The notes beneath the pieces are model-generated. The model searched no databases, had not been told where the DNA came from, and saw only the letters and a program-made list of their open reading frames with translations. Of a stretch of DNA of 64,000 bases, positions 12,415-62,384 are shown in pieces. The translations under genes were made by a program, and so were the position numbers. Each line of letters begins with the position of its first letter. Positions within the stretch are counted from its first letter, which is position 1. Origin of the DNA: Clytia hemisphaerica (lineage: Eukaryota); the NCBI RefSeq assembly GCF_902728285.1, contig NW_027103826.1:180759-244758 (forward strand), given 5' to 3'.

Positions 12415-12476
12415 ACGATCAAAACAGTCAATAACAAGTTGTGTTTTTTCTTATGACATTTTGAGCTTATATATAT

Positions 12477-14645: not shown

Positions 14646-15023
14646 AAGACGAAATAATTACTTAACAAAATTAATTTCTTGTTTTATGTTCTACATGATG
14701 CCGAGAAACGAACGAAGCTACGGATATTGAACGGTATGAGGAACGAACGGACCACGAAAATTGAGGACTACGAGGACCGGTGAACCAGAGATTGGTTTAG
14801 GCACATGCCAGCCCACAGGTGTCATAGGTGCACAGTGAGGCATTACAATCATTGATTATATACGTATTGGCCAGTTCGCTGGTGTCAAAGGTACACAGTG
14901 AGGCAAGATGAACGATATCAACGGTTAGAGATTGAATCAGGTATGAGAGATTAAAAATTTTATTCCCCCTTTTTCTTTCGTTACTTGTAGAATCCCTTAT
15001 GTTCGGAATTTGGCGAAAATTAG

Positions 15024-28900: not shown

Positions 28901-31900
28901 TTGGGTAATTGTGTTACAGCCATGTTGAGGCTAAAATTCGGCAATTCCTGAATGTAGGGTGTGTAGAGCTGAACAAAAGAAGCCCATTGTTTGAGAGCCT
29001 CTAAGTCTTCTGTATCTTTGAGAGTAGCCAAAGCAACTGAGTAATCCTCGCTTAAGCTTTGCTGTTGCTTGGCAACAATGCGGTTTTTAACGAAGTAAAG
29101 ATTTCTTAGACTTATTTTCAAGCTTTCCAAAGGTGTATCTTGGTTTTGGTGAGCTTTGAGCTGATGGTAGACCAGCTGCTCTAAGATGTTATCAAAATAC
29201 GCTGGAGGTTCCTCTTGAGGTGTTTCACAACATTGCTTGATGATAATGTCTTGGAAAAAATCTCTCATACACGCGTGTGTTTCCTGCTCGAAGGATTCCG
29301 TCATAAATTTTTGGCGCACAGCATATTTGAGCTGGTCGTGGAAGAATCGAAGATAGCCACCTCCCCCTAAAATATAGCATCTTTTTTTAGAATACAGCAA
29401 AAGCTCCATAGCTGAAATCCTGCTAACACACAACATTTTTGCAACGTTCATCTAACGTTATATGGACATTGTGAACATTAGATAAATGTTGAAAAAAGTG
29501 CTATGCCAGCTGGGAAAGCCTATCAAGCAGAGTCTTCGATCACACAAAAAAACAAAATTCTAATCTGTCTATCACGTCATTGAACTAAACACATTTCTCA
29601 TCAATCATGTATCATACCTCTTGAGATCACCATGATATCACGCCAAAAAATGCCCTATTACGCCACACCACGTAAACCATTGGAGAGGGGCTAATATCTC
29701 TAGCCACTAATCCTTTCTTGATTCAAAACAAACATTTATCAACATAGTCTCTACAAACTACAAACTAAGTTTTCATCGCTCTGACAACCTTTAGTTTTCC
29801 GAGCGTGTTCCAATTATTGAACCTTTCTACTGGCAATTGTTTATCCTATTATTAACAATTATCTTTAGGTATCTTCCTAATTGCCAGTACTTCCATTACT
29901 TACCGGCTGCTAAGAAATGAGAAATCGAATCATAAATCCTTGGGAAATTTGCATCGTACAAAAATTGTCCATCGCCTTTTTCTCTTTGTTCTTTGTAATG
30001 CAGAAGGTCATTTATTTGGTTCTCTAGCAAGCCATCTTTTGAAACACAGATTAATCCTGCTACGTCATGCACGAATAATTTGCCGTAAGTTATTGACCAA
30101 TCGTCTAAGAGGAAGCTAAACAGATCTGTAATGCTGTTTGGTAGATTCTCAATATACTGTGTCACCTTTTCGAAAATTCCAAACTTCCTCAAAGCCTCGC
30201 AAGCAGCAATTAAGTACAACGGACTTTGACTCTTAGACAATATTATCTCCATTTGGTTGCCAACTTTCGAGTCTTCATTTTCGGTTAGCTTCTTGTTGAA
30301 TCTTGCCAATGTTTCTCTGACCATTTCTTTCAAGTCTTCATGACTCATGTTTTCAACAGGAAGACATTCTGCGTCAGGAGAAACATCGAGTGCATTTTGG
30401 AAGGTCCCATTTTCTTGATTCAATGTCGAGATCATGAATTTGAGATTCTTGGGAGCATCTTTTAACGGTAGCCACCACATATCCCAAGCGCCTATATAAA
30501 AGGGATTTATGGGAATTTTAGATTTTTCAGGGCTTTCTAGGTGATAATTCAATGCATTTTTGGGATATTGTAACATTACTGGACCCTCAAAAAATAGTGT
30601 TTAATGAATCCCCGATTTGAGTCTCTCAAAATTCTTCTAAAACGTTCACACTTAAATATTTCTAGCTTTGAACTTAAGTAGCTAAGACTTTTTGCAACTG
30701 CAGTTGAGGGCGATCCGAGGGCTCCCTTTTTGTTAATTGTCTATCCAAAGGAAGACAATTAAGACAAATCTTGTCCCTGGCTTTCTCTATTTACCCTAGA
30801 CCCCTCTCTTTTACTAGTTACTAAACCTCAAGCAGAGAGACATTAACAAACATTCTGGGGTTTTCGGTCCATACCAAGGTTACCTCGGCAGAGATATACC
30901 CCATAAAACATAAAACATACCTAGCCCGCTGTGGAATTGATTGACAGCATCAATAATAATAACGAATAATTTATCTGGATATTGATTTGCACTTTCGATC
31001 AGAAATTCGTGATGTTCTTGTTTCAATTCTGAAGCATTTCCAGTAAATTCTTTGGACAATTTGGTTTCACCCCTATCTCGTCTGTATTTTCTCAAATTCA
31101 TTTGAAGTCTTCGCATCATTCCTGAAAGAAAAATTCTTGACCTTAAAAATATTACCTCGCTCGAATATTGATCCATAGATGTTCATGTAAAAATAAACAA
31201 GCCTTGGCTCAACTTTTTAGTCTAAAGCAAGAAGGATATCACTAAATACTCCTTTCTAGGATAGTATCGTTTTATTCTACTCACAAATTAGGGAAATAAT
31301 TCGAAACGGGGCATAATAATTATTATTTTGAAAAAGTTGTGATATTAGTTTGAAAAACACTATACCAAGTAAAGGTGAGCCTAAGGCTAGACTACTAAAC
31401 CACGTCGTTGTATTTCGCTGCAACTTAATCTTGCAATGAGCTCTATGTCTATATGTTCACTGAATACAATGTCAATTTCATTGTCAATGTCTTTCCAAAC
31501 CACTCGCCCGCGGAAATTTCTATTTTTATAAGAACTCTTTATAGCACTATTCCCGCATTCCTGTGTCCAAGGAAAGACAGACGCTTGCTAATCTAACTTA
31601 AGGCGAATGTTTTGCTAGTCTTTGTTCCCGTGCGAACAGGATGAGCTGAAAACGAGCACCTTACCTTCTAAAAGACTCGAACTAGGGCAAGAATCAACAG
31701 CGTGGATAAACAAAAAGTCGTTTGTCTTTTCTACTCGACTCATACAATCGACTGCAATTTTTGCCAACAAACCAGATTTTCCACACCCCGGTTCACCATG
31801 TAAAATCAGTGTGTTTGGGTAACCGCTAGTAAGACAGTGTTGATATGCTTTGTTAACAAGACCTTTACGACCAACAAATGTAGCAGCCTTTAATTTTACG

Positions 31901-32527
31901 GCGTTTCTATGTTGTATTGATTCTAGTGCGTAACTATAGAAAAAATGATAAAAATAAAAATTATTTGAATTGGAATGAATTGTGTTTTTAAATTCTCTTG
32001 TAAGTATCTCGATATATTTTGCAGGGGAACCAAAAAAGTAACTTTTTATATTATCCAATTAAATGTTGGAAAGATATTCACGAGTGGAATATTACCAAAT
32101 TGAAAACAACAAAAAAGTGCAAAATGAAGATGAAAAATGAAGAAGAAAAAAATAAACTTCGTGTAGAGTGTGCTGTGGTTTAAATTTAGAAGATTATAAC
32201 TATTTATCAAGGAATTTAGCATTCGAAAAATTATCAAAATTAGAAATTATTAGAAAAAAAACTTTTAGACTGTAAAAAATGAGGAGTGTATATTTAATTC
32301 GATCCAAAGAAAACACGTACTTGTCAACTTGTGTCGTATCAATCGAAGAATAATTCGATAAAATTGACTCCATTAAATCTTCCTCGACCTGTTTTTCAAA
32401 ATCTTCCAATTTCTTCACGTAACCAACTCCAAAACTTCTGGCATTTTCTCTTTTTAAGGTTATTTTTGCGTCACAATATTGAGCGCTGTACTCTGACCAT
32501 TTTATCTCTGGATGACCCTGGATAAAC
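19766..32527 (-). CDS. NWD1-like: NACHT- and WD40-repeat-domain gene (NWD1-like STAND NTPase), multi-exon. Order on the minus strand is N-terminal helical region, NACHT with Walker A and B, helical domain, then at least 7 WD40-repeat exons. Further 5' exons probably lie upstream of 32527.
   Basis: Walker A LILHGEPGCGKSGLLAKIA (compare NWD1 LVLFGPPGIGKTALMCKLA). Walker B DKLFVIIIDAVNQF (compare NWD1 SLVLLLDAMDDL). The N-terminal exon aligns to NWD1 ...KELGEQFVVRANHQVL. Downstream exons carry WD40 signatures (GH...D, LRIFD, WD). Confidence 0.75.
20065..20770. mobile_element. MITE-like element with terminal inverted repeats tctactagagggg / ccctctagtaga and internal degenerate tandem motif aaaa(t)tttcgcacccccctaagga.
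   Basis: The terminal inverted repeats and the internal repeats are visible by direct reading. Confidence 0.5.
21008..21200 (-). CDS. NWD1-like: NWD-like WD40 exon. Only the 3' part of ORF 21008..21391 is coding; the upstream part overlaps a MITE.
   Basis: …MAFDLTNGTIKYYVQRAYKIIGGFFSNNCLLYNGNDSNHNFFKYDPESEKDICEYKGK. Confidence 0.35.
21395..21600. mobile_element. MITE with G-rich terminal inverted repeats (ggggggcgtacgg … ccgtacgccccc) and internal cggtatttcgg(a/t) motifs. The same family recurs at 22050-22200 and 62385-62790.
   Basis: Inverted termini and a shared internal motif are seen at three loci. Confidence 0.55.
22385..22730. mobile_element. MITE with terminal inverted repeats catccctttctcacagacc / ggtctgtgagaaggagatc. 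A second family member lies at 41455-41745.
   Basis: The two copies are about 85% identical over about 300 bp (…ctcactg.a.aatattatgctattttt…cccactggctg.aaaaa…). Confidence 0.6.
22742..23023 (-). CDS. NWD1-like: NWD-like WD40 exon (ORF-bounded, approximate).
   Basis: Open frame …MYACAINKTGDLGCVSGYFNGKQSYF… on the same strand, colinear with the flanking WD40 exons. Confidence 0.4.
   Translation of the reverse strand: MDVSDLKIFKEKMLLQGFSKPMYACAINKTGDLGCVSGYFNGKQSYFIEFVYLLPDIFYSILCSMGKCRCAAFSSREVEKIHFCYHSNLTSEF
23216..23581 (-). CDS. NWD1-like: NWD-like WD40 exon (ORF-bounded, approximate).
   Basis: …CLSFMDLDDAGSNLIVTGNQEYLGVAKV… and …RLYDTATLELKL… match the WD40 β-propeller blade pattern. Confidence 0.45.
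   Translation of the reverse strand: MKYKSLKNKFSLFRLYDTATLELKLSREAAKSTELRGVLHPDSTHVIIFSNTTKIACFKVAELELVSEYEYFTPEDNTCLSFMDLDDAGSNLIVTGNQEYLGVAKVPYTITISLFHRIRVF
24995..25510. mobile_element. MITE/foldback element with terminal inverted repeats gcgctgttatgcgcagttttgtaatt … aattacaaaactgcgcataacaagcgc and an inverted internal duplication (…gagttgaaagagttataactcg(g/a)cattac…).
   Basis: Perfect ~26-bp terminal inverted repeats are seen in the sequence. Confidence 0.6.
27828..28124 (-). CDS. NWD1-like: NWD-like WD40 exon (ORF-bounded, approximate).
   Basis: Open frame …FSAHLGGDIIGWDLQ… carries the WD dipeptide. Confidence 0.45.
   Translation of the reverse strand: MIFIDLSKDLCTSWLTCTGDNLLACWNEINIHAHVDSNERYIATWITVLDNNSLKIVKKWCTEKPGFDCCYNERLNMIFSAHLGGDIIGWDLQGVFFI
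28530..29451 (-). CDS. NWD1-like: NWD-like large exon carrying the HETHD-like region and the first WD40 repeats (…GGVSCVSVNPKRDIVAITGKFTAVFDMNSGEVIHDFKDMGSADSISSDGKTLILGVVGTISRYNISKGTLEDVVQIFEK). The donor GTATGT lies at 28524-28529. The 5' end is approximate.
   Basis: Long open frame with WD-repeat-like periodicity, ending exactly at a consensus donor. Confidence 0.55.
29896..30576 (-). CDS. NWD1-like: NWD-like helical/winged-helix region exon. The ORF-bounded range is given; true splice ends are slightly inside it.
   Basis: 226-aa open frame with no repeats, in colinear position between the NACHT exons and the WD40 exons. Confidence 0.5.
   Translation of the reverse strand: MLQYPKNALNYHLESPEKSKIPINPFYIGAWDMWWLPLKDAPKNLKFMISTLNQENGTFQNALDVSPDAECLPVENMSHEDLKEMVRETLARFNKKLTENEDSKVGNQMEIILSKSQSPLYLIAACEALRKFGIFEKVTQYIENLPNSITDLFSFLLDDWSITYGKLFVHDVAGLICVSKDGLLENQINDLLHYKEQREKGDGQFLYDANFPRIYDSISHFLAAGK
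30921..31121 (-). CDS. NWD1-like: NWD-like NACHT exon with Walker B (…HEFLIESANQYPDKLFVIIIDAVNQFHSG).
   Basis: Acceptor is tttttctttcag, donor is GTATGT. A hydrophobic stretch is followed by an acidic D in hhhhDa context. Confidence 0.7.
31665..31933 (-). CDS. NWD1-like: NWD-like NACHT exon with the Walker A P-loop (…FVGRKGLVNKAYQHCLTSGYPNTLILHGEPGCGKSGLLAKIAVDCMSRVEK…).
   Basis: Acceptor is ttttttctatag, donor is GTAAGG. Carries the GxxGxGKS motif. Confidence 0.75.
32321..32527 (-). CDS. NWD1-like: NWD-like exon encoding FIQGHPEIKWSEYSAQYCDAKITLKRENARSFGVGYVKKLEDFEKQVEEDLMESILSNYSSIDTTQVD.
   Basis: Strong acceptor gattctttttttag, donor GTACGT. The phase-2 end joins the phase-1 start of the next exon, giving ...VDN|YALE. 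Confidence 0.65.
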
Positions 32528-33922
32528 CTAAAAAAAGAATCAACAAATTTGAAGATTTGGATTTCAGAGCTAACAATATATGTTATGTATATGAAGGGGA
32601 GAAAGTGCCTATTTTGCAACATTAAAAAAGAGCGACAAATTTCACCATCCCAACCCCGACCGAAAGTTAAGAGCGAGGACTTAAAACAATCTGGAAATTA
32701 TGTAAAAATACCCACAAAATGGTAAAAAAAAACGAACTTTCTAAGAACAATTTTAGGCTTCAAACTTAAAAAATTAAGAACATCAGAAGGTTTAAAAGGT
32801 TTTGGTATTCTTATAAAAAAGGTTTACACCGAGGGCAGGGGGGGGGGCAAATCACTCGAAAAATGGTGTGCGAGATTTATGATTTACTTTTGATTTATGA
32901 TTTATTTTTGATTTATGATTTATTTTAGATTTACTTTTGATTTATGAATTATTTTTTATTTCTGATTTATTTCTGATTTATTTTTGATTTATGATTTATT
33001 TATGATTTATTTTTGAATTATTTTAGATTTATCTCTAATTTATGAATAGGAGTAATTTTATGGATGCATTTTTTCAAATTACAACGAACTGATAATCAAA
33101 ATAAGTGTCAAAATTTTTTAAAAAGTTGAAAAGTCAATTTTTTTCGAAAGATTTTTTATTTATTTTTTATTTATTTCTGATTTATTTTTGATTTATGATT
33201 TATTTATGATTTATTTTTGAATTATTTTAGATTTATCTCTAATTTATGAATAGGAGTAATTTTATGGAAGCATTTTTTCAAATTACAACGAACTGATAAT
33301 CAAAATAAGTGCCAAAAAATTTAAAAAGTTGAAAAGTCAATTTTTTTCGAAAGGTTTTTTATTTATTTTTTATTTATTTTTTATTTTTGATTTATTTTTG
33401 ATTCATAAAATTGCGTACGAAATTTATTTTAGTGATTTGCCCCTCGGTTTACGCAGGCTACCTCACAATACTTACTCGTTCAAAGCATCTCTATCCTTTT
33501 TATAAGCAGAAGCATTTTTATTCACGTTGTATTGGAATTTCAATTGCAGATCTTCCATCTCTTTTTCCACATACTCAAATTCAAAAATCCATCGAAATTC
33601 TTCTGGGAATTTTACACCTTAAAAATGAAGGAAATATGTTCCGAGATTTTACCGATCTTTTTCCTCGGAAAAATATTACGGAAAAATCTCGAAACGGGTA
33701 AAATATCGAGTTTATCGTCAAGCTGTAAACGTTTCGAATTTTAGAAGGAAGAAATGATTGTTGAAGAATTGATGCTTCAAAGTCAAGGAAGTATTTTTGT
33801 TGAGAATTGGGAGAGAACTTTTATAAAGATCGCTCGTCATATGGTTTAATACAAGACACAAGAAGCCGGAGCGGCCAGCTGACGTGGCAATAACCGAATG
33901 TCGTTCGTAACGGGTTCCTTAA

Positions 33923-43085: not shown

Positions 43086-45959
43086 GGTTTCTTAAATAGA
43101 TGACGTATATAGGAAGTATATCTATGGAGGTCTGCGATTCAGACTGAGTCCCCTCAAGCTTCAAGGGTCGACATATGTATGTCCCTTTCGAAGTATATCA
43201 CTATCACACCAAAGGAGTTCTATCAATCACGTAGCACGCTTTTTGAAATTATATTTCATACCATCATGCCTAAAAAACACTTTTTTTAACAAGTCTTCAG
43301 TTAACCATGATACACGTTTTTTTCATAATAAAAAACTATGTAAGAACATAAAGCTTCAATGGCAAGAATGGCAAGAATGGTAAGAATGAGTTAAGAACAT
43401 TTTAAAGGCTTTGCAGACTCTAAAAAAGCCAATTTCTTAGGAAAATGGACAAAAATACATAAAGAATAGGGAAAATAACAACATGTTAAGAACATTTTTA
43501 GGCTTGAAACTCAAAAAGTTAAGAACATCTGAAGGCTTCGCAAATTTTACACGTTCTAATAAAAAAACGTATATTAAGAACAAGTTAAGAACATTTTAAC
43601 CCTATTCAACCTAGGCTTTTAGGGGTGGTCCAAACCTAGGGGGGGGGCTTTTCCTGTACCACCCCTTAACTTTTGATCTAGTGGGTCTTTTTGGATGAAA
43701 TTTGGCACATAAGATCCTTGTCACATAAGGTAACTTTTGACAAAAAGTTTTTTTGATGACGTCACCCATCATGCCCAAAGTGAGCAAAAACCGAAAATTT
43801 CCTTTGTTCTCATAAATAGCTATTGTATTCTAACAAAGGCTTTAAAAAAAAGTTGCCTGAGTTTAAAAGGCTTATTTTATCCTAAATATTCAATAAATTA
43901 CGGTTTAAACGATATATATTTGACATGAATCATAAATTTGTATTGGAAAAGTGTCAATTTTTATGACACCCTACTGTCAGAAATGTCATCATGCTCAAGG
44001 TGTGAAATTTTTTAGAAGTCAATTCTTTTTTATTTTGAAGCTAAATAAAAGTTAGGAATTTACAGAAAATTTCATGGCAAAAGCTATATTATTTCAGGAG
44101 CTATTACCAATAATTTGACCTCCGAACAGGAACAGCCCCCCCCCCTAGAACGAATAGGGTTAAGGCTTTGTGGATTCTAAAACAGCCAATTCTTTTAGAT
44201 AAATGGACAAAAATAAAACTCACAGAAGAGTAAAAATAAAATCAAGTTAAGAACATTTCTAGCCTTAAAACTCAGAACAGTTACAAGGCTTCAGAAATTT
44301 TGGACGTTCTCAGAAAAAAAACGCGTACCGGTTGATTAGCAGGAGCTGTCAATTCTTCGCCTGTTTGTTGATGATTGTTGGAGGAAGATCCAGTGTTGGT
44401 AAATCTCCTGTCAGAAAGACTTTCTCCAGGGTTTAAAAGTGCTGACTGGCATTTCTTCTTATTACTCGAAACAATGGAACCCATTTTTCAAATGAAAAAC
44501 TCGTGGTTAAATATCTAATCCCTTCAATGGATGTCTATGTTAAGTAACTAACTAAATACAACATTTGAACATGATTTTAAAGGAAACCATTTCACAGTAT
44601 CTCCTTCCATTTGCTTACACAGCATATTTTTTAACCAATGAAACAAACCAATCTCTCTTATCCCCAATCATGGTCGTAATATTTGAGAAAAAAGGGAAAT
44701 TTACCGGGAAGTTTTGAAACCACAATCGATTTGTAAGTGCTCTAAAGTAGGTTGGAAGGGTCGAGTTTTAACTCTGACTTTTAACATGAGACTTAAGACT
44801 TAGTCTGACCTTAGGATCTCAGGATCCAAGAGTTCAAAAATGGTCCAATAAGGCTAATAATATAGCCTAGAAGTCTATGGTTGGAAGGGTCGAGTTTTAA
44901 CTCTGACTTTTAACATGAGACTTAAGACTTAGTCTGACCTTAGGATCTCAGGATCCAAGAGTTCAAAAATGGTCCAATAAGGCTAAAAAGGTTAAAAACC
45001 TGAGCCAAATTGAAATCTCCGATTAAATTTAAGAGATGGCTCAAAATCGACTTTCTCGCCCGAACTCAAAATTTCGAAAAACGAGGAAATAAGCTTAATT
45101 ATTCTCAATTATGAGAGATTATTTTTGTTTACTCTGCTTTGTTAGCAGCATATAAGGCCCACCTCATTTCTACGTTATACTGTAAAAAAACAAAAATATC
45201 TTTGATAAAAAAAATGAAAAAAACGTTGTACATTCTTCTTCGCAATTGCAATGTCTTAAGCCAAAATGTTATTTTTTTCACTCTCTTTTACTCTAAGTTA
45301 CGAGTGAATTATATTCAAAATTCAAACATTGATATGAAAAAAGCCATACCATTGTATCTAGGAGCTGTTTATTTTGTTTTTTATTATAATGTTTGTTTTT
45401 ATAGTCTATTCGATACATATCTGATATACGTTTATTTATAAGAACTTCAAATCTTCTTAATTAAGGCTTTGGATTTTCTTAACTTTCTACGTTTTAAGTC
45501 TTAAAATGTTCTGAAGGTATTTTTAGTTTCAACCTTTTTACCGGTATCTTTTGAGAAGTTGTATGCATTCTTCGAATACACCCCTTCTATGGCGCGCCAA
45601 AAAGGTTTTTAATACACCAACTTTTTTTTCGATACCAACTTTTTTTTTTATCAATATCAACATTTTTTTTTCGATACAAACTTTCTTTCCGATACCAACT
45701 CTTTCTTTTTTTCAATACCGACTTTTTTTTTAATACCAACTTTTTTTTAAAACCAACATTTTTTATTACAATACCAAAGTTGTACAATACAAACTTTTGC
45801 CTCGATGAGTAACCATTCAAGTGTAAATGGATTCTTAATAAAATACAAGAACGAGGAAGATGGTGCGGAAGCGCATGCGTGGAATTCGTGGATCAAAAAA
45901 GAGCTGTCTGGATTAATTTTGCCTATCCGATAAGATCGGCATCTTTTATTTCAAAAAAA

Positions 45960-46800
45960 GAAGCATTTGAGTAAAAAAGAAAACTCTCACACCACTATGC
46001 TTATAAATAAACGTTACCAAAAACAACATCAAAACAATACAAAATATGCTTATAAAATACATCCACAATATATAGTTACCAACAACCACACCATTATGCT
46101 TATAAATAAGCGTTACGAAAAACAACATCAAAAAAATCCACAATATATAGTTACCAACAACCACACCATTATGCTTATAAATAAAAGTTACCAACAACCA
46201 CACCATTATGCTTATAAATAAACGTCACCAAAAACAACATCAAAACAATACAAAATATACCAACAAAAACAATACAAAATATCGATAACATATCAACAAC
46301 ACACAATTATGCCTATAAAAGTTACCAACAACCACACCACTATGCTTATAAATAAAAGTTACCAACAACCACACCATTATGCTTATAAATAAACGTCACC
46401 AAAAACAACATCAAAACAATACAAAATATACCAACAAAACCAATACAAAATATCGATAACATATCAACAACACACCATTATGCCTATAAAAGTTACCAAC
46501 AACAGCACCACTATGCTTATAAATAAACGTTACCAAAAACAACGTAAAAACAATACAAAATATGCTTATAAAATACACTCACAATATACAGTTACCAACA
46601 ACCACACCATTATGCTTATAAATAAACGTTACCAAAAACAACATCAAAACAATACAAAATATACTTATAAAACACACCCACAATATATAGGAAAACAACC
46701 CCAAAAACGACGTAAGCCGATAACCAACAACACATCATTATGCCTATAAAAGTTACCAAAAAACCACACTACTATGCCTATAAATAAAAGTTACCAACAA
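45960..46800. repeat. AC-rich minisatellite with units of about 60-120 bp (…accacaccattatgcttataaataaacgttaccaaaaacaacatcaaaacaatacaaaatat…).
   Basis: Direct tandem repetition. The overlapping ORFs on both strands are translation artefacts. Confidence 0.8.
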
Positions 46801-47224
46801 CGAATATACCTATCAATACTTAAATACTTAAATTATAAGATACAACATCAGAACAAAAGCTTATAAAACAAACAACACCAATTTACAACACAAATACAAA
46901 AATATCAAAATAAATACACCTAAGATACTCCTCCTACAAACAAAATACAAAGATATGCTTACATAAAAATACACAACATATGCTTTCTAAAAAAATGTAA
47001 TCTTCATAAACTAGAATTTATAAGAAACCACTTTCAAAAACGCAATAGAATAAACGAGTCCTAACGCCCATATAAATAAATAACAAGACGACTCGGAAGT
47101 CGAAAATTTCGCATAATATTCGAAATGAGAAAAATTGACCATAAAATAACGAGGTCAAGGGGGGGGGGTATCTGCTGTACAACGACGTGTTAAACGTGAT
47201 GCATGAAGAATATTGTACACGAGG

Positions 47225-47940: not shown

Positions 47941-50935
47941 ATTTTACTTTTTCATAGAGAACCTAAATGGGGGGGCTTGTAGCATTGAGTTTAAAGCCTG
48001 AAACCTTTCTCAGGCAAGAAAAAGTGCATTTTTGACGACAGATTGAATGTAGCAATTCCTTTGTTTACGATTGATATTTTTTTCGAAATTTAGCGGTAAA
48101 TTTTAGTTTCAATCTGGCATTTGTGTAAAAACCAGGCGAGCCGCTCAAGGCCGCGCAAGTTTGGTAGGATTCGTTGGCTTCAAATCCTACCAAAGATATT
48201 GACTTCTAGCCCTTCGGGCTTATATTTCATTGGTTTGTAGGGGTTCGAAATACCGTTTTTCCGTCAAAATTTTGGCTGAATCCCGTAATCCCGAAAATTG
48301 AAAAAAATGATAACACTGTCACACCAGTTTGTAGAGGTTAAAATACCGGCATAATAGCAAAAAAATAGGCTAAATACCTCAGCTGATTTTAAAAAATGAT
48401 TTTTCGAATGCCATTAAAAATTGAAAATGATTTATTGATGGCCCCTTCAGGAGTGCAATGTCAAGTTGAATACAATTAAAAACTCCAGACTCCAGCATCA
48501 AAACAACAATAAGAATGAATAAACTCATTTATAAATTATTCTTTTGTGTTTTGTTGTTGTGATGTTGGAGCTTCATCTACCCTGCCGATGCACCAGACTG
48601 TTGCTCATCTTCTGTTGGATGCTGAAAAAGAAAAGTATTATTAGCAAGCACCAGACTTTTTCCTTTTACCCAGCAACAGAGACCTTTTTTCAAAGAGGAC
48701 GTCCTGTTGAATAATTATGTAGTCCAGCCATAAAAACAATGATAGAGCCATGCATAATTACTGTATCATGCATATTGTAATAATTATGCATGGTTTTATC
48801 ATTGTTTTTCTGCTGGACTACATAATTATTCAAAAGGGTGGCCTCTTTGAAAAAAGGTCTATTCAAATCTGGTCCCTTGTCCAGCGAAACAAAGTTTTCT
48901 CGGTTGACACCAGCCATTTTGTGTCCAGTGCTTCAGCAAGGCTGCTGTGCTGGCAGGGTCGTAGCCTTATTTAACCTGGACATAGTGTCCTATGAAAACA
49001 AAGGTCTATTCAAGATAGACCTTTTGCTAGTCAGGATGTTGAATAATTTAAAAAGACCAGCCTCAAAACAATGATTAAGAAAAATAAATGCATAGTCAGA
49101 ATAATTATGTGCTATATGTGGTCATTGTTTTAGTGCTTTTTAATTATTCAACAGGACATCCGGACTAGCAATAGGTCTATTTAACATTCTCCCACTCGTT
49201 ACAATCAAAAACTTTTTCCAACAATGACCAATGGTGGATAAGATATACTGTAGATTGATTTCCACCTTCACATGTTATGGCCAGACGGTGTCAATCGAAT
49301 GAATCGAACGCCGAATCAATTGAATGCAATAGAATAATAATCGCAATCGAATATCACCAAGGATTTGCCGTTCTTAACTGATTATGTTCGATTACACTCG
49401 ATTGATTTAATTGTATTTGATTTTATTCACTATCGTACCGTACATACTTACGCGCTTGGTCGTCCACGCTAAAAAAGCTCTAAAGAAGTGATCCAATTTA
49501 ATTTAATCCCAATCAAACTTATAGAACATAATCGTAATCAAACATAATCGAAGGTAATTTACAATCAATCAAACCAATCAAACGTTTTACTCGAACGCAA
49601 TCGAACACCACGATCGAATATTACCAAAAATCAAAAAGTTTGTGGTCTATATAACCACAGAAAGCCCTATTTCCACCAAACAGCGCTTGAGGTACAGGTA
49701 CAGGTGAATCTTAAATTGAAAAAAGATAAATCATTTTGAAAATGACGTCATTTTCTACATTTATATATGCAAAACCATACAAATCTATTTCGGCAATCTA
49801 TGATTTGTATAAAAAATGGCTGCTTCCATATGAATGTGATCAACGACGAAAAGCTCTATTCATCTCACTATCAACACCTATGACTAATTGCTAAAAAATG
49901 TTATACCTGTGTTTTTGTATTGAAGGGTTCTGTTGTCAGTTGTTGTGGGGGTGTGGTCAAAAAGAAGCCAAAAACTCTACTGAGCACTGTAAAAGCTTAT
50001 TGGTGCATTCAATAACTACACAAACATAAAATACTAAATAGTAAACGAATGACAAACCTCTTTAAATACTCTACAAGTTACCAGAAAACATAATAAAAAT
50101 ATATACACAGCAGGAAAATCCGCAGGAAAAGTGTACAAAAAGTGTTGACTTCAAGCAGCCATTAAAAAGCTTTCACAAGGAATGTTTACAAACCCTTGGT
50201 TACATTCACCTTGTAGAACCATTAAAGAAACGCTGTTATTCTTCTTTGTTTTTTGTTTTTTTTTTTTTTTTCGTTCAAGCATTTTCGGAACGTAATATAC
50301 TAGAGAAATTAAATACAAGTCGGTATTGAAAAATTGTTGGGTTACAAATTGTAGATCTCGAGATAATTCCATTTATAGATCTTACAAATCCCATAAAAAG
50401 TGCTGAGTCAGCAAAAAAATGCACTTTTCAAAGAACTTCCAACTGAATTATCTCGAGATCTACAATTTGTAACCCAGCAAACCATACCATTTTCTTGAAG
50501 TACTCTTTCAGGGCTATCCAGCGAAAGTGTCAGAAATGCCAAAAAATTTGAAGGAAAAATGCTGACGTCAGCAGAAAAAGGGCTAAAATGGCCATTTTGA
50601 CGACTTTGGCGGGCCCTAGCTCCGCAACGGATGTTCAAAACCAAGCATTTGACCCCATTTTCTTGCTCAGCACTTCGAGCTCTATCAGATTAGCACAAAA
50701 GTTTGTTCATTTGAGCACTTTGAAAAATCGACTAGTAAAGGGGGGACCCTTGATTGAGCAAAAGACCCCGTTTTAGGTCAAATTTTAGGGTTTTATCACC
50801 TATTCAGCCTGAAAACCATCCCAAACCGTAATCTATAGGTACATAGGAAGCTAAAAAACCATGGTTCACAAAGTTCCGTTCAAGGTGGGTTTTTGGCCAT
50901 TTTTTCCTGGACTATAAGAAAGGAAAAATAAAAAC

Positions 50936-51280
50936 TTAAACTTCATCTTGAGGGAGTCGTACTCTACCTCTCGATCCACGGATGCATCTCACTGTAGATC
51001 TAACGAGCGAGAAGCATATGATAGTTCTAATGCTGTTAGTAACTTTTGAGAAAGTTTCATGTCTTTTGTCTGCTATCATTTCAGCTAGACGCTTGTAAAA
51101 TAACGTACATTCACGTCCCATCGCACCATTTGCCGCAAAAACCAGCGGAGAAAAAGTCCCATTTTCGGCTTGCAAAATACGTTCACCATATTGTCTCTTC
51201 TTTTCGCGTTCATTGGATGATAAGCAGTTCTCAATTTTTGAATTGGTGTACCTTCGAGCAAACGGGTTGAAAACCCTCAC
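50936..51280 (-). pseudogene. Frameshifted continuation of the LINE ORF, carrying the REL-endonuclease-like C-terminal part.
   Basis: It lies immediately downstream of the ORF2 stop, in a different frame, and has conserved-looking sequence (…ILQAENGTFSPLVF…YKRLAEMIADKRHE…). Confidence 0.55.
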
Positions 51281-51324
51281 ATCAAAAAATGCTCTTTGGC
51301 CAGCAGTCCAAAAACTGAGAGCGC

Positions 51325-53913
51325 TTATATCCAGTCTCGCCTCGCGTGAGACAATGAATGTCTTGGTAGATCTTCGTTATTAAGTTCGTTTAATAGGGGT
51401 TCAGTTCTTACATCTACGCACACTTCTCTTAGCAATTTGGACGTAATGTCTCTAATTTCATTGTGTCTCAAAGACACGAATCCTCCCTTCTTGCACGAGA
51501 GCGCGTGTGCTAGATCGAACGATGATCCGCACGCGCAAGTTGATGGTAGTCGGTCGAGAGGCCAGTTGTATCGAATTCTGATGGCATCCCAAAACTCTTG
51601 CTTGGTCAGCTCGAAACCTTGTTCATTCAAAGGGATGGATGTCAGCCAATTTGAAACACCTTTTTGATTGAGCGTCTCCATCGTTCGTTTGGTGTTGATG
51701 TCGGCTGTCTCCAAGAAAGCTCGTAGCTTTTCCTGGTGACGTTGATGCCGTTCGTTGTGAAGACGAGACTTGGATTTCGCTTCGGGTGCACCATCATTTG
51801 TTTGAAGGATTTGATTCTGCAGTGCCACGGTTGCACTCATCGAGTCTCTGTGATCGTGGCTCGATTCTTCGGCGTAGATTTTCAGTCCCATTCCGCCGAG
51901 ACGTGGAGGTAAGGAAAGCATTATTCTTTCCTGGTCGTTGATGATGCGTCCACCAGTTAGTGATGGAATCAGTCGGTGCCGCACAGCTTCGTCGACTCTT
52001 TTCAGCTCGTCATTGATCGTTGGGATGGTGCGTAGGAAGTACGTCAGCTTATGTTGGTAGCTGCTGACGTAGACTGAGTAGGCTGCTTGTGGATAAGTTG
52101 CTGCGATTTCAGCAAGAAGATTAATCTCCTGGGTCCAATCGTCGATCTTTTGGTTGATGTACTGACTTTTGTTTTCATCCGTACCAATCACCGCCCCGAG
52201 GTGCCGTTCGCCATCGGATGTTATTTTGATATCGGTACCAGCAAACTTTTCCTGTGCTTGTTCGAGTTGGTCGGGTTTAACAATCAGCCAAGATTTTGTT
52301 GGTTGTGGATAATAACCGTAGGATGGACCGATCTCGAGGAGATGATCCCACCATTTCTTCAATGCGTCCAAGGACCCAGCTGCTGTGATATCGTCGGCGA
52401 AGGCGACCATTCGGTTGTGGTTGTTGCCTATACCAATGAGGAGGATGTTAAGCATCGGTCTAACACCCAGAGCGTAGATAGCCATACCGAGTGGATCTCC
52501 TTGAGTGGTTCCTTCTTGGGATTTGATTTCTAGACCTCCAACGACGAAAAGTCTAGCTGGGCTGGAGTAGCAGTTCGTAACATATGTTGCGATTTCGGGA
52601 CAGATATACTTGATATTGTGGATCAGGGCTTCTCGATTGATGTTGTTGAAGGCGTTGGCTGCGTCGACAAGGATGACAGCGTCTGTTCTTTCGTTGGTAT
52701 ACATCCGTCTCATGGCGTGGATTGCACCCTCGCTCCCAGAACTTCGTCCGCACATTTGCGCGTCAGATGAACCACGTACAACGTCTTCAGAGAATGCGGC
52801 CATCACAACTTTCCCCATGATTCGTCGGAGGACTTCTCCAACACCTATCGGTCTAAGTCCAGGGTTCTTGTTGAGAGGTACAAGACGTGAAGCAAAAAGT
52901 GGTGCTAACGTTGAATCCTTCACATCGATGGAGCATATATTTCTGATGAGCGCTGCAACTGATTTTCGGAGGTCTGTACCCGTGTCTCCGTAGTCTCTTG
53001 ATACGAGGATTCGTCTCCATCCGTCCGCATCCAAGCCCGAGGGTCCGGAACCACCACGAGTGATCTTTGCAGCTTCGTACACCATCTTGTCGTCAATGAC
53101 GTCAAATATTACATTTTCGACGGTTTGAAGTGGACCTTGCAATTTGACGTCTTCTTCAGCTTTACGTCCTTCTGGATGTTTGACTTTTAGTAGATCTTTC
53201 GTTTGATCATTCAGTGGTAGGATTCCCCCTTCCATATTGTTCGACAGAAGCTTGATAGCTGAGTTCAAGTTTCCTTTTGATACGTGCTCGCGAAAATTTC
53301 GAGAAATGACGTTGATGTTTTTCTTTCTATCAACTTTTGGTAGTCTCTTTTGAAGGGTGTCTGCTTCTCGAAACAACTGGTCAAATTCTCCTTGCTGCCA
53401 GAGTTTGAGCCTTCGATTTAGTGCATCGACATGATGCTTACTCTTGGAGTTCTTGGCCGGTTTTTGCAATAGAAGCGCTGGCATGATATGTACTGCGTAC
53501 ATCGCACATTCTTTAATCGGGCTGTCGGCTAACCATTCGTTGATCAATCGGGTAGTTTCTTTGATGTAGTCTTTCCCGGTCGAACCTTTCGGCAGCATAA
53601 AGATGTTCTTCCTCCAGTACACTATCTTTTCATAGCATTGTTTCAGTTCGTGAGTTGCTTGATCGCCGTTGAGTTGGCCCCACATGAAATGATGTTGTAC
53701 CATGGGTTCTTGAGGTGGAGGATCCGGTGGTCTGGGTGGTGGTGGAACTGGAAGTGGTTGAACGGGTCCATTGCAAAATGGAAGATGTTGTAAGACGCCG
53801 CGTTGTGAACGAAATCTTTGCTGTCCACACCTTTCGCACGCCACTAAATTGTTCACGTTTGTTCGATTGATTCGGTTTTCAGCATTTTCGGTCGGATCAG
53901 CTTCGTTTGGCAT
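51325..53913 (-). CDS. Reverse transcriptase ORF of the RLE-type LINE (zinc finger, RT, CCHC).
   Basis: RT motifs PLNKNPGLRPIGVGEVLRRIMGK, ILVDAANAFNNINRE, AFADDITAAGS and GLKIYAEESSHDHRDS-like region. The domain order matches R2/NeSL/HERO-type elements. Confidence 0.75.
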   Translation of the reverse strand: MPNEADPTENAENRINRTNVNNLVACERCGQQRFRSQRGVLQHLPFCNGPVQPLPVPPPPRPPDPPPQEPMVQHHFMWGQLNGDQATHELKQCYEKIVYWRKNIFMLPKGSTGKDYIKETTRLINEWLADSPIKECAMYAVHIMPALLLQKPAKNSKSKHHVDALNRRLKLWQQGEFDQLFREADTLQKRLPKVDRKKNINVISRNFREHVSKGNLNSAIKLLSNNMEGGILPLNDQTKDLLKVKHPEGRKAEEDVKLQGPLQTVENVIFDVIDDKMVYEAAKITRGGSGPSGLDADGWRRILVSRDYGDTGTDLRKSVAALIRNICSIDVKDSTLAPLFASRLVPLNKNPGLRPIGVGEVLRRIMGKVVMAAFSEDVVRGSSDAQMCGRSSGSEGAIHAMRRMYTNERTDAVILVDAANAFNNINREALIHNIKYICPEIATYVTNCYSSPARLFVVGGLEIKSQEGTTQGDPLGMAIYALGVRPMLNILLIGIGNNHNRMVAFADDITAAGSLDALKKWWDHLLEIGPSYGYYPQPTKSWLIVKPDQLEQAQEKFAGTDIKITSDGERHLGAVIGTDENKSQYINQKIDDWTQEINLLAEIAATYPQAAYSVYVSSYQHKLTYFLRTIPTINDELKRVDEAVRHRLIPSLTGGRIINDQERIMLSLPPRLGGMGLKIYAEESSHDHRDSMSATVALQNQILQTNDGAPEAKSKSRLHNERHQRHQEKLRAFLETADINTKRTMETLNQKGVSNWLTSIPLNEQGFELTKQEFWDAIRIRYNWPLDRLPSTCACGSSFDLAHALSCKKGGFVSLRHNEIRDITSKLLREVCVDVRTEPLLNELNNEDLPRHSLSHARRDWI

Positions 53914-54894
53914 TTTGATACATTAAAACCGGCTGCGAAAGAATCTTTACAGAAGACAATCACCTTTTGTTGCAAATTTGGTCTGCTTTTTGTATCTGTT
54001 TATCTTCTTTTTTGCTCGGTTTTCTTCAATATTACCGGAGCGCTAAACTTAACGACCGTCCGCCATCTTTTCTTAACGATTAGATTATTCATCTTTGTGC
54101 GTGAGTCCATCTTTAGAATATTCTAGAATGTTCTAGAAGAACATGTGAAGCACTATGAACACGAAGAACGAGTGCTGAGTGTTGATTTTTAGCACTACGA
54201 CCGCAGAAAACCGATTGTAATACTTTCGCTATGCGAAATTAATAAGTGAGCCTAACCTACAAAAGAAATCAAATTCAAAACACAATAAGAATAAACGAGT
54301 CCCAACACCAATAACAATCACTATTAAGTGAGCCTAAATTAACAAAGAAAATACACACTTAGCACCCATCCCATAACCCACAAAATTAAAACTGAAAATA
54401 CCCAACTCATCCCCAACCCCCAACATATCAAAACCGAAAAACCATGAGGAAAATTTCTTTCCGCAACCTGACAAGATTGAACACAGACATGGCAAACATG
54501 AACCTTGATATTGGATTTATCGGTAAGAGAGACATCTACACGTTTTTTTTTTAATAAGAACAAACTATATAAGAACATAAGGCTTCGAGGCCCAAAAATT
54601 TAAGAACATTCTAAGAACATTCTAAGGCTTTGGAGACTTAAAAACCTGCATTTTCTTAAGAAATTACATCAAAATGCTCAAAAAATGCTGAAAATAAGAA
54701 CATTTTAAGAACATTTTTAGGCTTCAAATCCAAAAAACTAAGAACATCCGAAGGCTTCGAAAATTTTTGACGTTCTTATAAAAAAAAAAACGTGTACACA
54801 TTTCTAATGATATATCTAATAAGATTGCCACCAAAACGAGTTATATACCATTGATATCTTAATGTACCAATTGGATAGTGGTTGAGGCACGGAG

Positions 54895-55155: not shown

Positions 55156-55379
55156 ACCCTGTACAGTAACACAATCCAAAGTACAACACTCGTTAAAACA
55201 CTAATTACATATAAATCACGATTTAGACTTTTCAACAAGCTACACACCTTTTCAAAATAATACCTTTCTGTGGATCTCAACTAAGACCTACAGAGAATTT
55301 TTTAGGAAGTACTCTACCTAAGGTACTAGCCTTTGCAGGACCTTAACCCTAAGAATCATAAATTTTTTTGCCTGATCTT

Positions 55380-55800
55380 TAAAATCTAACTTTCAAGTCG
55401 TGTGACCAAGTAAGGATACATCTTTTTGACTTATCTGCAAAATCTAACTTTCAAGTCATGTGACCATGTAATGAAAATTTATTTGACTAATATGTAAAAT
55501 CTAACTTTTAAATCACGTGACCCAGCGTGACCATGTAGTGGGAATATAAATGTTTGCAAAATTTTTAAAGAACTCTTACGCAATGCATCATGACCAAGTA
55601 AGGATAAATATTTTTGCCTGATCTGCAAAATCTAATTTTCAAGTCATGTGACCATGTAATAAAATTTTTTGAATTAATCTGCAAAGTCTAACTTTTAAAT
55701 CACGTGACAGTGTCGTGGGAATATAAATTTTTGCGAAATTTTTGAAGAACGCTCCTACAATTCCCCGTGACCAAGTAAGGATAATTTTTTTGACCACACA
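55380..55800. repeat. Tandem repeat with about 60-bp units and about 185-bp higher-order units (…ctgcaaaatctaactttcaagtcatgtgaccatgtaa…). Each unit contains CACGTGAC or CATGTGAC.
   Basis: Seen by direct reading. It lies about 3.7 kb upstream of the GPCR start codon. Confidence 0.7.
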
Positions 55801-60736: not shown

Positions 60737-61883
60737 GCCAAGGTGGTTTTGAGGTCATTGGTGTCTTCCCTTTCAATGAAATCAACAAAAGAAGCGAAGT
60801 TGATCTTCAAAATGGTGTTATGCTTGCTGAAGCAATGAGATTCGCTATCCAACAAGTCAACAAGCTTGATATACTCCACGGTTATAAATTCAATTTGACC
60901 AGTATGTTCAATTGTCTAACCGAATTTTGTGTCCGGGAAAAAATTCGTGATACTTTCTTAACAAAAACTCAATTTCTAATTGGCCCTTACTCGTCCGAGA
61001 CTTCTTATTATGGCTCTATTCTTACTGATACTTTCCAACTGCCGTCAATCAGTTACAGCGCTACATACAGTGATTTCGGACGTTACGGGCTTATGCAACG
61101 ATACATGTACCGGACAGTTCCCTCGGACGATTATCGTATTTTGGCCGCTTTACAATTTATCCGACAATCCAACTGGACGTACGTTGGCGTCATTAGTTCC
61201 CATGGTTACGATGGAGAACGTGACGCTATTCTGTTTATACGGAAACTTTCAAAATATGGTGCTTGTTTGTCAAGCCAAAGAAAAATTCCGAGATATGAAG
61301 ACACTGAAAAACATTACGAGAATATTATCGAAGAAATGCTCTCAGAAACCAGGTTAAGTGTTCTTGTTTTATTTACAACCAATAAAGATACAAGAAACAT
61401 TTTCCGAGTCTTAAAAGCGAAAAAATTAGAATCTAGATTCACAATACTGTGTATGTATGGCTGTACTAACTACTTGGATGTCGTAAATGGAAACCAGGAT
61501 ATATCAAACGGTACTTTGAGTATGTATATCCACAATACTGAAGTTGAAGAATTCAAGTCCTGGTTTTTACGCTTGAAACCTGAAAACCATCCTTTCGGAG
61601 ATCTGTACTTTAACACATTTTGGGAAAACGTATTTCACTGTCATGTTAATGAATCAGAAAATGTTAAATTGTATGACAAAAAATGCACCATGAATGAGCA
61701 ACTGGATGTCGGTCAAGGATACTACACGTCTACCCCTGTCCATACTGTTCTCGATGCAGTTTATGGTATGGCTTTGGCAACCAAAAATTTCATTGAAAAC
61801 ACATGTAACGAATTTGAATATCGAAAATTGGAGCTCAACAAAAACGTATCCATTGGAACAGCAAAACGAATTTGTTATATCGG
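60737..61883 (+). CDS. Class C GPCR exon 2 (1147 bp) encoding most of the Venus-flytrap ligand-binding domain.
   Basis: Acceptor is ttttttctgttcacag. The translation aligns to mGluR VFT: GVMLAEAMRFAIQQVN (LEAMLFALDRIN), YGACLSSQRKI (EGICIAHSYKI) and DLYFNTFWENVFHCHV (NPWFREFWEQRFRCSF). Donor is GTATGT. Confidence 0.85.
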
Positions 61884-62384
61884 GTATGTATTGCCATAGT
61901 CCGTATAAAAAACCCTGGAAGCCTTCCATTGTTTCTTACTTGAGCTTGCGTTGAGAAATTAGTTTGTTTTGCTCAATTTTTGATCATGTGATTAAATCTT
62001 AAACCAATCCCAAGGGGAGTACTTGGTAACGTGATCAAAAACTGAGTAAACGGATTTTCATCTAATTTCATCTAAAAGATAATAACAAAGGAAAAAGCTA
62101 ACAAAAAGTTAAAACAAAAAGCTTCCAGACCAGTGTTTTTTATAAGGACTATGCTATTGCAAAAGTTCAGTTATTCATCAAATAAATAATCTAAGCGATC
62201 TGTGGTACATATAACATTGAAAGGAAAGGGGTGGTCATTAAGTAGCTAAAAGTACAATCATGGTCGAATTATTTGAGAAAAAGGGAAATTCACCGGGAAG
62301 TTTTGAAACCACAATCGATTTGTAAGTGCTCTAAAGTAGCTTGGAAGGCTTAGAGTTTTAACATGAGACTTTAGAGGGGGGGCG

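Follow-up and report, generated by a model that had tools for sequence, protein, structure and literature searches.

Extent and coding capacity of the element

A long open reading frame, followed by more coding sequence in a shifted frame, lies on the minus strand of a 64,000-nucleotide stretch of the Clytia hemisphaerica genome (contig NW_027103826.1, positions 180,759 to 244,758; hereafter the window, in whose numbering all positions are given). It raises the question of what kind of mobile element this is, whether the copy is intact, and whether it inserted at a specific target. With a probability of about 0.9, we consider it one copy of a single-ORF CRE-clade LINE, of the Cre-1_HM or "CRE-II" type, in this hydrozoan. 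The kind is already known and catalogued from Hydra, and the Clytia family is a different family.

The coding sequence of this CRE-type LINE copy runs on the minus strand from 53913 to 50936 (~991 aa) with one frameshift. Three-frame translation shows that its two ORFs form one frame broken once, as the preliminary description of this DNA had read them; the second frame, open from 51376, continues as SREARLDISALSFWTAGQRAFFDVRVFNPFA... down to the stop codon. The features of the copy are:

50936..54085, minus strand: LINE copy, minimum confirmed extent from 5' UTR to stop codon (BLASTN to the related contigs L001 and L002; stop at 50936-50938)
53914..54085, minus strand: 5' UTR of at least ~170 nt, with the conserved motif AAGATGGCGGA...CTCCGG at 54060-54069 (relatives' alignment)
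51325..53913, minus strand: main ORF of 862 aa, beginning at an ATG conserved among relatives and ending in a premature stop, with its final nine residues out of frame
about 51355..51366, minus strand: copy-specific frameshift site, where PRHS is followed by LSHARRDWI and a stop, against PRHANVSREARLDI in intact copies
50936..51280, minus strand: second ORF of 114 aa (ORF list)

The closest relative at the nucleotide level, L001, matched 54078-51180 by BLASTN (85.8% nucleotide identity, ~2.9 kb) and L002 matched 54042-51079 (79% identity). In the alignment, similarity to L001 starts at CGTTAAG.AAAGATGGCGG, at ~54085, a 5' boundary that comes from the comparison with these two contigs only; the 3' end of the copy is somewhere below 50936. 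The 5' UTR motif shows a single zero-mismatch occurrence in the window and is located ~125-155 nt upstream of the ATG, with equal spacing in L001, L002 and a third relative, L004. The G+C content is 45-49% inside the element and ~34% in its surroundings; because of this difference and of hundreds of homologues at E = 0, the LINE copy is not a chance reading.

Domain architecture and class

The protein, read across the frameshift, shows the following domains:

53773..53838, minus strand: N-terminal C2HC zinc finger, CERCGQQRFRSQRGVLQHLPFC, C-x2-C-x13-H-x3-C, aa 26-47
52924..53691, minus strand: conserved alpha-helical N-terminal domain, aa ~75-330, in the interval from zinc finger to reverse transcriptase
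52279..52863, minus strand: reverse transcriptase fingers and palm, aa 351-545, with FADD at 52390-52401 (Pfam RVT_1, E 1e-9)
51544..52278, minus strand: thumb and alpha-helical linker, aa 546-790 (model secondary structure; colinear with Cre-1_HM over 555 aligned residues)
51448..51537, minus strand: CCHC knuckle CACGSSFDLAHALSC, C-x-C-x7-H-x3-C, at 51493-51537, then the RHNEIRD helix at 51448-51468
50936..51349, minus strand: PD-(D/E)XK restriction-like endonuclease (RLE) catalytic core, in the shifted frame, with RLD at 51329-51337, FFDVRV at 51272-51289, NEREKKRQY at 51188-51214 and the stop at 50936-50938

The zinc finger, the FADD reverse transcriptase and RHNEIRD all stand on the minus strand where they had been described previously; the spacing of the knuckle, which had been given as C-x-C-x7-H-x4-C, is corrected here. 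In the zinc finger, conservation among 41 sequences is complete for C26 and C29 and at least 90% for H43 and C47. A profile search aligns it with the zinc finger of R2Tg, R2Pm and R2Bm, and the zinc finger of one relative matches Pfam zf-C2HC_2. The AlphaFold model of the whole protein is confident (pLDDT 86.7); in the helical N-terminal domain the pLDDT is mostly 85-96, with helices from H83 to H328, and this domain shows family-wide conservation and falls within the full-length Foldseek alignment to R2. The family profile matches the reverse transcriptase of R2Tg with an E-value of 7e-11. Residues C793, C795, H803, C807, R816 and H817, of the knuckle and the RHN stretch, are invariant across the family alignment, and this stretch aligns to R2Bm residues 936-988 in the profile search.

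Pfam found RVT_1 as the only domain of this protein, and no APE domain (Exo_endo_phos) either here or in 41 full-length relatives, in agreement with the earlier reading. In the AlphaFold model, the N-terminus consists of the zinc finger and the helical domain where an APE would stand. The order of zinc finger, reverse transcriptase, CCHC knuckle and RLE, with the knuckle and then the PD-(D/E)XK nuclease both C-terminal to the reverse transcriptase and no APE, supports the classification as a LINE with a restriction-like endonuclease and a single ORF, which the preliminary description had proposed.

Searches against solved structures agree with this class. A single-sequence phmmer search against PDB gave no match and the family profile was required; with it, only R2 proteins were matched (E 9e-15 to 1e-5), and the scores were best in the zinc finger and reverse transcriptase, joined in the case of R2Bm by the knuckle and RHN stretch. 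In Foldseek at full length, the seven best matches were R2 (E 1e-21 to 1e-17, ~900-1150 alignment columns), followed by L1 ORF2p, Prp8 and group II intron reverse transcriptases, and the nuclease domain alone again found the solved R2 proteins as its best structural match. A Penelope-like element was rejected as there is no GIY-YIG domain, and DIRS/Ngaro as the element is without tyrosine recombinase. A tyrosine recombinase is present elsewhere in the window, outside the LINE copy.

By analogy with R2 and the CRE clade, the intact element would be transcribed from an internal 5' UTR promoter, and its ~1000-aa protein would bind its own RNA. The N-terminal zinc finger and the helical domain may grip the target DNA, the C-terminal PD-(D/E)XK nuclease (D861, D877, E901/K904) would nick one strand, and the reverse transcriptase would copy the RNA from the nick, that is, by target-primed reverse transcription. 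We infer nuclease activity, RNA binding and target-primed reverse transcription from R2 and regard them as putative functions here.

Phylogenetic position

The domain order is common to all RLE LINE clades, and the best structural and profile matches are R2 proteins, although R2 is to our knowledge the sole RLE LINE clade having solved structures. Both observations are compatible with a place in one of the clades listed in the preliminary description, R2, R4/Dong, NeSL or HERO. The "R2 group" of Kapitonov et al. [quoted passage not shown]

The sequence comparison points to CRE, the clade that this list omits. Using 21 RLE-LINE reference sequences from the supplement of PMC5678591, the best BLASTP match was the Hydra element Cre-1_HM of Repbase, which carries the label LINE_CRE-II (E 1e-142, with 41% identity over 555 aa), followed by Cre-1_BM (4e-40), CRE2 (3e-13) and SLACS (9e-12). 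Against these, R2 references ranged from 4e-10 (R2Dr) to 0.012, NeSL/Utopia from 8e-4 (Utopia) to 2.4 with the NeSL references at 0.004 or worse, and HERO from 0.05 to 0.36, while R4 gave 0.18 and DongAa 2.8. The phylogeny with R2, R4, Dong, NeSL and HERO that had been suggested was generated by the neighbor-joining method with 34 sequences from a subset of Repbase clades, 513 columns and 100 bootstraps. The family groups with Cre-1_HM at a bootstrap of 100, and the family with Cre-1_HM, Cre-1_BM and CRE1/CRE2/CZAR/SLACS also at 100; only 65% supports the node joining Cre-1_BM. R2 is located outside the 100%-supported CRE group, and R4/Dong, HERO and NeSL are on separate branches. Given these E-values and this grouping, membership of R2, R4/Dong, NeSL or HERO is highly improbable.

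Furthermore, the protein is colinear with Cre-1_HM, 555 columns covering 552 residues. In the published alignment (PMC5678591 supplement), Cre-1_HM shows linker gaps and a "C-ACG" knuckle, and the window has CACG. The CRE-II classification rests on the Repbase-derived headers of that supplement, and a literature search on "CRE-II" found almost nothing.

Frameshift and condition of the copy

The comparison of the frameshift with other copies, which had been recommended, shows that it is specific to this copy. Two further copies of Clytia hemisphaerica, P0005 (XP_066914550.1) and P0121 (XP_066916384.1), are both in frame across the break; in XP_066914550.1, 482 of 488 residues match and PRHANVSREARLDI is read in frame at the frameshift site. 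Their scaffolds (3.41 and 2.96 Mb, respectively) are different from that of this copy, and where compared both are ~99% identical to it in protein. Programmed frameshifting was rejected, since the intact copies are in frame. As its sequence reads in the single assembly used, this copy carries a one-base frameshift that severs the nuclease core from the reverse transcriptase and presumably cannot be autonomous. The copy is almost undamaged otherwise and ~99% identical in protein to two copies; therefore, the family has moved recently.

An assembly or sequencing error would leave the copy intact and autonomous. Single-base indels are common errors in assemblies, and outside the break the 991-aa frame is free of stop codons and ~99% identical to the other copies. 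However, the loss of one base does not account for the whole difference from the intact copies, as the change of HANV to HSL needs substitutions too, and we regard an error as unlikely. It would not change the classification.

The annotation of this family also admits a domesticated reverse transcriptase serving as a retrotransposon-derived host gene: NCBI has the gene models XP_066914550.1 and XP_066916384.1, and related loci are annotated as "uncharacterized protein". Against this, near-identical copies are found on different scaffolds, several further families with 47-71% identity are present in the same Clytia genome, this copy is frameshifted, and a relative, L085, is a 5'-truncated copy (aa 323-981), which is typical LINE behaviour. 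In addition, the G+C content is unlike that of the surroundings, and metagenomes contain very many dispersed members of the family. A host gene is thus hardly credible, and a mobile LINE of the CRE clade remains the reading that we adopt.

Insertion site

Site-specific insertion is typical of the CRE clade (into spliced-leader genes in trypanosomatids, and into telomere repeats in fungal relatives) and does not define it. For this copy, the preliminary description had proposed a position between a foldback element and AC-rich minisatellite-like DNA, with that AC-rich repeat family as a Dong-like target. An imperfect hairpin is indeed found (arms 50334-50388 and 50426-50480, 84% complementary) and 54250-54500 is AC-rich on the plus strand (47% A and 27% C, 74% A+C), but "minisatellite-like" is generous, because this segment holds one 29-nt direct repeat only, 82 nt apart. 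The resemblance that had been reported between the 5' flank and a block adjacent to a minisatellite is real: 54263-54313 matches 47022-47072 with 82.7% identity over 52 nt (E 3.5e-6).

Site specificity for an AC-rich repeat family, represented by 54250-54500 and by the DNA beside the 45988-46690 minisatellite, would accommodate this similarity, and distant relatives do lie in microsatellites: (ATT)n borders L035 at either end, and a copy-(AGT)n-copy tandem arrangement is seen in L010 and L051. However, the shared block stands ~180-230 nt outside the end of the L001 homology, which stops at ~54085; therefore, 54250-54330, which had been taken as the 5' flank, is not the junction. No CRE-type element was found beside 47022-47072, which is itself ~330 nt outside the minisatellite. 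Upstream of ~54085, L001, L002 and the window show mutually unrelated sequence, and in L001 and L002 it is not AC-rich. Neither end of this copy has a microsatellite, including (TAA)n, and when the flanks of the fetched loci were compared all-against-all by BLAST, the matches were confined to UTRs of related elements, with no common flank. The case for the AC-rich target consists of one junction, and we consider it very unlikely.

Other candidate targets and terminal signals were searched for as well. Rfam gave no matches in the window (rRNA, snRNA, spliced-leader and tRNA) and none in 20 related loci, and no telomere repeats flank this copy or the fetched relatives. Words common to 50300-50945 and 54040-54450 are two 10-mers and shorter ones, at chance level; they reveal no target-site duplication, so that the insertion event is itself inferred. 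Regarding the 3' end, a BLASTN search with 50300-50940 as the query had no match in any of the loci or in the window, no conserved block appeared when the sequence was aligned to the 3' UTRs of L003, L004 and L085, and no poly(A) or microsatellite tail was found downstream of the stop codon. The terminal motif GGCGTGCCGG..CC.CGTGCT, which L004 and L085 have in common, does not occur in the window, and in these two relatives it folds no better than shuffled sequence. Altogether, there is no evidence of sequence targeting in this lineage, and the insertion looks like an ordinary dispersed one between host genes.

Related elements and relevance

Among 8000 candidates scored, 706 were homologues, and at least 310 loci were found in JGI metagenomes. 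The C-terminal domain was detected in 1,710 cluster representatives (E <= 1e-30) and lies at the C-terminal end in full-length hits. The compact LINEs in the proposed animal CRE branch would measure ~3.3-3.6 kb and have one ORF of ~1000 aa. We suggest only tentatively that this branch (the Cre-1_HM type) may be a very large and mostly uncurated radiation of compact LINEs with repeated target switching, in which head-to-tail lineages specific for trinucleotide microsatellites would stand against the untargeted young Clytia family.

In itself, this is routine repeat annotation of little weight, in which the clade is corrected from R2/R4/NeSL/HERO to CRE. The genome of Clytia, a jellyfish used as a laboratory model, contains a young family of CRE-type LINEs whose copies are nearly identical, and the RefSeq "uncharacterized protein" loci of this family are candidates for masking as transposable elements. 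Marine metagenomes are rich in the wider family, and its microsatellite lineages, among them L010, L035, L051 and L056, might help to study the target choice of RLE LINEs. If target switching were true, comparison of the N-terminal zinc-finger and helical domains could reveal how RLE LINEs are retargeted, which would be relevant to R2-based gene insertion tools.

Comparison with known elements

R2 elements (R2Bm, R2Tg and R2Pm; structures 8gh6, 8ibw, 9dou, 9nl2 and 9nl3) belong to another clade, with 14-16% identity to this protein, in which Pfam finds no Myb motif. The target of R2 is the 28S rDNA, and no rRNA was found in the window, so there is no 28S rDNA here as in R2. Dong inserts in (TAA)n. 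Dong/R4 and HERO are also RLE LINEs, but their kinship with this element goes no further than that level, with BLASTP E-values of 0.05 or worse. Microsatellites are the target of some HERO families (PMC4640811); as described above, this copy has none at either end.

MoTeR, Cnl1 and FoTeR are fungal LINEs reported as CRE-clade relatives (PMC3636483, PMC12857005). They are specific for telomere repeats, unlike this copy and the fetched relatives, which have no telomere-repeat array beside them. The trypanosomatid elements CRE1, CRE2, SLACS and CZAR have spliced-leader (miniexon) genes as their only insertion sites (PMC3636483); they differ from the Clytia element in sequence, with an identity of only ~23-26%, and neither the window nor the flanking DNA of 20 relatives shows a spliced-leader gene or any other RNA gene. 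However, they share with it a C-x-C-type knuckle, a short linker and a downstream RLE.

Cre-1_HM is from a different genus and a different family (59% divergent), and the comparison with it spans the reverse transcriptase to the knuckle only. Over this range, which begins where the reverse transcriptase starts and extends to the CCHC knuckle, the two are colinear; its host is also a hydrozoan, and it is the sister of the Clytia family with 100% bootstrap. Both share the motifs GPSG(L/M)DAD, RLIPLDKNPG(L/I)RPIG(V/I)GEVLRRI, DA.NAFN and EGTTQGDPL, followed by PQAAYS, NWL..(I/L)P and C-x-C..F...HA(L/M)SCKKGGF.

Coding sequence and protein features of the LINE copy

Three-frame translation of the minus strand from 53913 to 50936 shows that the two adjoining ORFs form a single coding sequence with one break. 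The second frame is open from 51376, reading ...SREARLDISALSFWTAGQRAFFDVRVFNPFA..., down to a stop at 50936-50938, and the joined pieces encode a protein of ~991 amino acid residues. The G+C content of the element region is 45-49%, against ~34% elsewhere in the window.

Coding features of the element (minus strand)
51325..53913, ORF of 862 aa (ORF listing)
50936..51280, ORF of 114 aa, adjoining the 862-aa ORF (ORF listing)
53773-53838, zinc finger CERCGQQRFRSQRGVLQHLPFC (translation)
52390-52401, FADD (translation)
51493-51537, knuckle CACGSSFDLAHALSC, C-x-C-x7-H-x3-C (translation)
51448-51468, RHNEIRD (translation)
aa 351-545, RVT_1 (Pfam, E 1e-9; sole Pfam match)

The zinc finger, FADD and RHNEIRD of the preliminary description were all located in the minus-strand translation, as was its C-terminal knuckle, although the last spacing is H-x3-C, one residue fewer than described. 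Pfam predicted no APE domain in the window protein. Since none of 41 full-length family members (0/41) carries one, the search for APE in intact copies, proposed as a refutation of the earlier classification, was negative. Invariant positions in the alignment of these sequences (A2, the repaired protein and 40 full-length homologues) include the cysteines of the zinc finger, the motifs of the reverse transcriptase, C793/C795/H803/C807, R816/H817, R859, D861, D877, E901 and K904.

The Clytia homologues P0005 (XP_066914550.1) and P0121 (XP_066916384.1) are both in frame across the break, reading ...NEDLPRHANVSREARLDISALSFW..., and a programmed frameshift was rejected because they are in frame at the same site. 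At ~51355-51365, the frameshift is either confined to the window copy or an assembly error. Because the frame is lost in the nuclease core (51349-50936), the window copy could at best be mobilised in trans.

Assignment to the CRE clade

The repaired protein was compared by BLASTP with 21 references of the Repbase-derived RLE LINE alignment in the supplement of Mahbub et al. 2017 (PMC5678591). The best match was Cre-1_HM, a Hydra magnipapillata element with the Repbase header LINE_CRE-II, which has the same signature motifs as the family.

BLASTP matches of the repaired protein
Cre-1_HM, E 1e-142 (41% identity over 555 aa)
Cre-1_BM, E 4e-40
CRE2, E 3e-13
SLACS, E 9e-12
R2Dr, E 4e-10
Utopia-1_AMi, E 8e-4
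HERO, R4, NeSL references and Dong, E 0.004 or worse

A neighbor-joining tree (34 sequences, 513 columns, 100 bootstraps) grouped the family with Cre-1_HM at 100%, with Cre-1_BM added at 65%, and again at 100% once CRE1, CRE2, CZAR and SLACS were added; R2, NeSL/Utopia, HERO and R4/Dong fall outside this group. By these sequence comparisons, the element belongs to the CRE clade, and not to R2, R4, NeSL or HERO. The "R2 group" comprises five RLE clades, CRE among them (PMC3636483, PMC4640811); therefore, the preliminary description was right in the class, an RLE LINE, but CRE was absent from its list of clades.

Searched against PDB, the A2 profile matched R2 retrotransposon proteins only (R2Tg, 9e-15; R2Pm, 2e-12; R2Bm, 4e-7), with the zinc finger and reverse transcriptase as top-scoring parts, and residues 936-988 of R2Bm match the knuckle/RHN stretch of the family (806-856). 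The AlphaFold model of the protein is confident (pLDDT 86.7, pTM 0.76), and Foldseek ranks seven R2 structures first (E 1e-21 to 1e-17, ~900-1150 alignment columns), ahead of L1 ORF2p, Prp8 and the reverse transcriptases of group II introns.

Copies, relatives and proposed mechanism

The protein search found 706 homologues among 8000 candidates scored, many of them full-length (~1000 aa), and the best named ones are "uncharacterized protein" entries of C. hemisphaerica. P0005, on a 3.41-Mb scaffold, is identical to the window protein at 482 of 488 residues; P0121 lies on a 2.96-Mb scaffold. Both nearly match the window copy, so there are at least three near-identical copies. Other Clytia proteins at 71, 54 and 47% identity represent several related families within one genome. 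A profile of the C-terminal knuckle and RLE, run at E <= 0.001, matched 20,905 cluster representatives, and 1,710 at E <= 1e-30; in full-length matches this domain lies at the C-terminal end of the protein. In JGI metagenomes, the number of confirmed loci is at least 310. This kind of element is common and already catalogued, the Clytia family being at most a new member.

Two relatives, P0055 and P0058 (~1335-1348 aa), show a ~300-aa N-terminal extension ahead of the usual zinc finger; that of P0055 contains a PHD finger (PF00628, 5e-7), possibly a chromatin-reading module for target choice.

On mechanism, the analysis shows which domains the protein has, that residues of catalytic type are conserved and that the structure is equivalent to that of R2; it also shows a relative truncated at its 5' end (L085, aa 323-981) and multiple near-identical copies. 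[quoted passage not shown]

Boundaries of the window copy

Nucleotide alignment with the window covers 54078-51180 (85.8%) for L001 and 54042-51079 (79%) for L002, the contigs that encode the closest non-Clytia homologues. Similarity to L001 starts sharply at CGTTAAG.AAAGATGGCGG, ~54085, upstream of which the three sequences are mutually unrelated; the alignment places the likely 5' end at ~54085. A motif, AAGATGGCGGA...CTCCGG, is found ~125-155 nt 5' of the ATG in the window (54060-54069, minus strand), L001, L002 and a further related locus, L004.

AAGATGGCGG in the 5' UTR of the sub-family
Window, 54060-54069, minus strand
L001, 176-185
L002, 61-70
L004, 324-333

AAGATGGCGG, which we take to resemble a YY1-type site, could belong to an internal promoter.

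The 3' end was looked for and not located: the sequence past the stop does not match relatives and shows no poly(A) or microsatellite, and no convincing target-site duplication was found for the window copy. L004 (3753-3777) and L085 (4066-4088) share a terminal motif, GGCGTGCCGG(N5-7)CC.CGTGCT, followed by TAATAA-type repeats; it is absent in the window, and its predicted folding is no better than that of shuffled sequence.

Other features of the window

Three consecutive plus-strand ORFs (11662-15824) look like a DIRS/Ngaro-type tyrosine-recombinase retrotransposon. Two further regions contain gene-like ORFs, and several repeats were found.

Additional features
11662-12414, plus strand, gag-like protein with CCHC knuckle (first ORF)
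12477-14048, plus strand, reverse transcriptase and RNase H (second ORF; RVT_1 1e-14)
15024-15824, plus strand, tyrosine recombinase (third ORF; Phage_integrase 2e-7)
28474-32622, minus strand, large ORFs resembling exons, from a NACHT/STAND NTPase gene (NACHT 2e-5 at 31615-32058), with an APAF1_C-like helical domain at 28474-29451
60820-61899, plus strand, ORF of 359 aa carrying a ligand-binding domain, ANF_receptor (7e-31); likely one exon of a receptor or class-C GPCR gene
54528-54805, MITE-like repeat (~260-280 bp) bounded by terminal inverted repeats of 34 nt, 85% complementary; copies 72-79% identical at 43311-43567, 32694-32820, 44233-44321 and 45431-45539
50334-50480, imperfect hairpin (55-nt arms, 84% complementary, 37-nt loop)
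44750-44986, perfect 129-nt tandem duplication (1.8 copies, 100% matches)
55358-55522, 58-nt repeat (2.9 copies)
45988-46690, AC-rich minisatellite with nested periods of 37, 49, 75, 99, 134 and 171 nt, the last with 96% matches over 2.3 copies

The hairpin, earlier described as a foldback element, is unrelated to the LINE.

Insertion sites and microsatellite association

An AC-rich target had been proposed from the similarity between the 5' flank of the LINE and sequence next to the minisatellite. The similarity is real (54263-54313 and 47022-47072, 82.7% over 52 nt). The proposal itself fared worse: the probable 5' end stops ~180-230 nt short of the block, the counterpart at 47022-47072 has no such element alongside and is ~330 nt beyond the minisatellite, and neither L001 nor L002 has a 5' flank related to the block. 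Also against it, no sequence common to the flanks of the fetched related loci was found, and Rfam families gave no matches in the window or in 20 related loci. On the evidence of this single copy, the idea of an AC-rich target is unsupported.

In many metagenomic relatives with intact ORFs, the 3' end, 100-330 nt past the stop, shows AATAAA and then a trinucleotide microsatellite or A-run. The L035 element has (ATT)n on either side (1-190 and 4010-4052); L033 terminates in (ATT)19 and L056 in (AGT)27 (2870-2966). Furthermore, L010 (3300-3400, 7000-7115) and L051 (40-100) contain head-to-tail copies with (AGT)n between them, each copy ending in ..AATAAA..(AGT)n. Some lineages of the group therefore look microsatellite-associated, while others, including the window family, do not. 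The one mildly novel thread of the analysis is that, in the animal branch of CRE, insertion appears to switch between a microsatellite-associated and a dispersed mode. Among other RLE LINEs, Dong is microsatellite-associated. So are some HERO families (PMC4640811).
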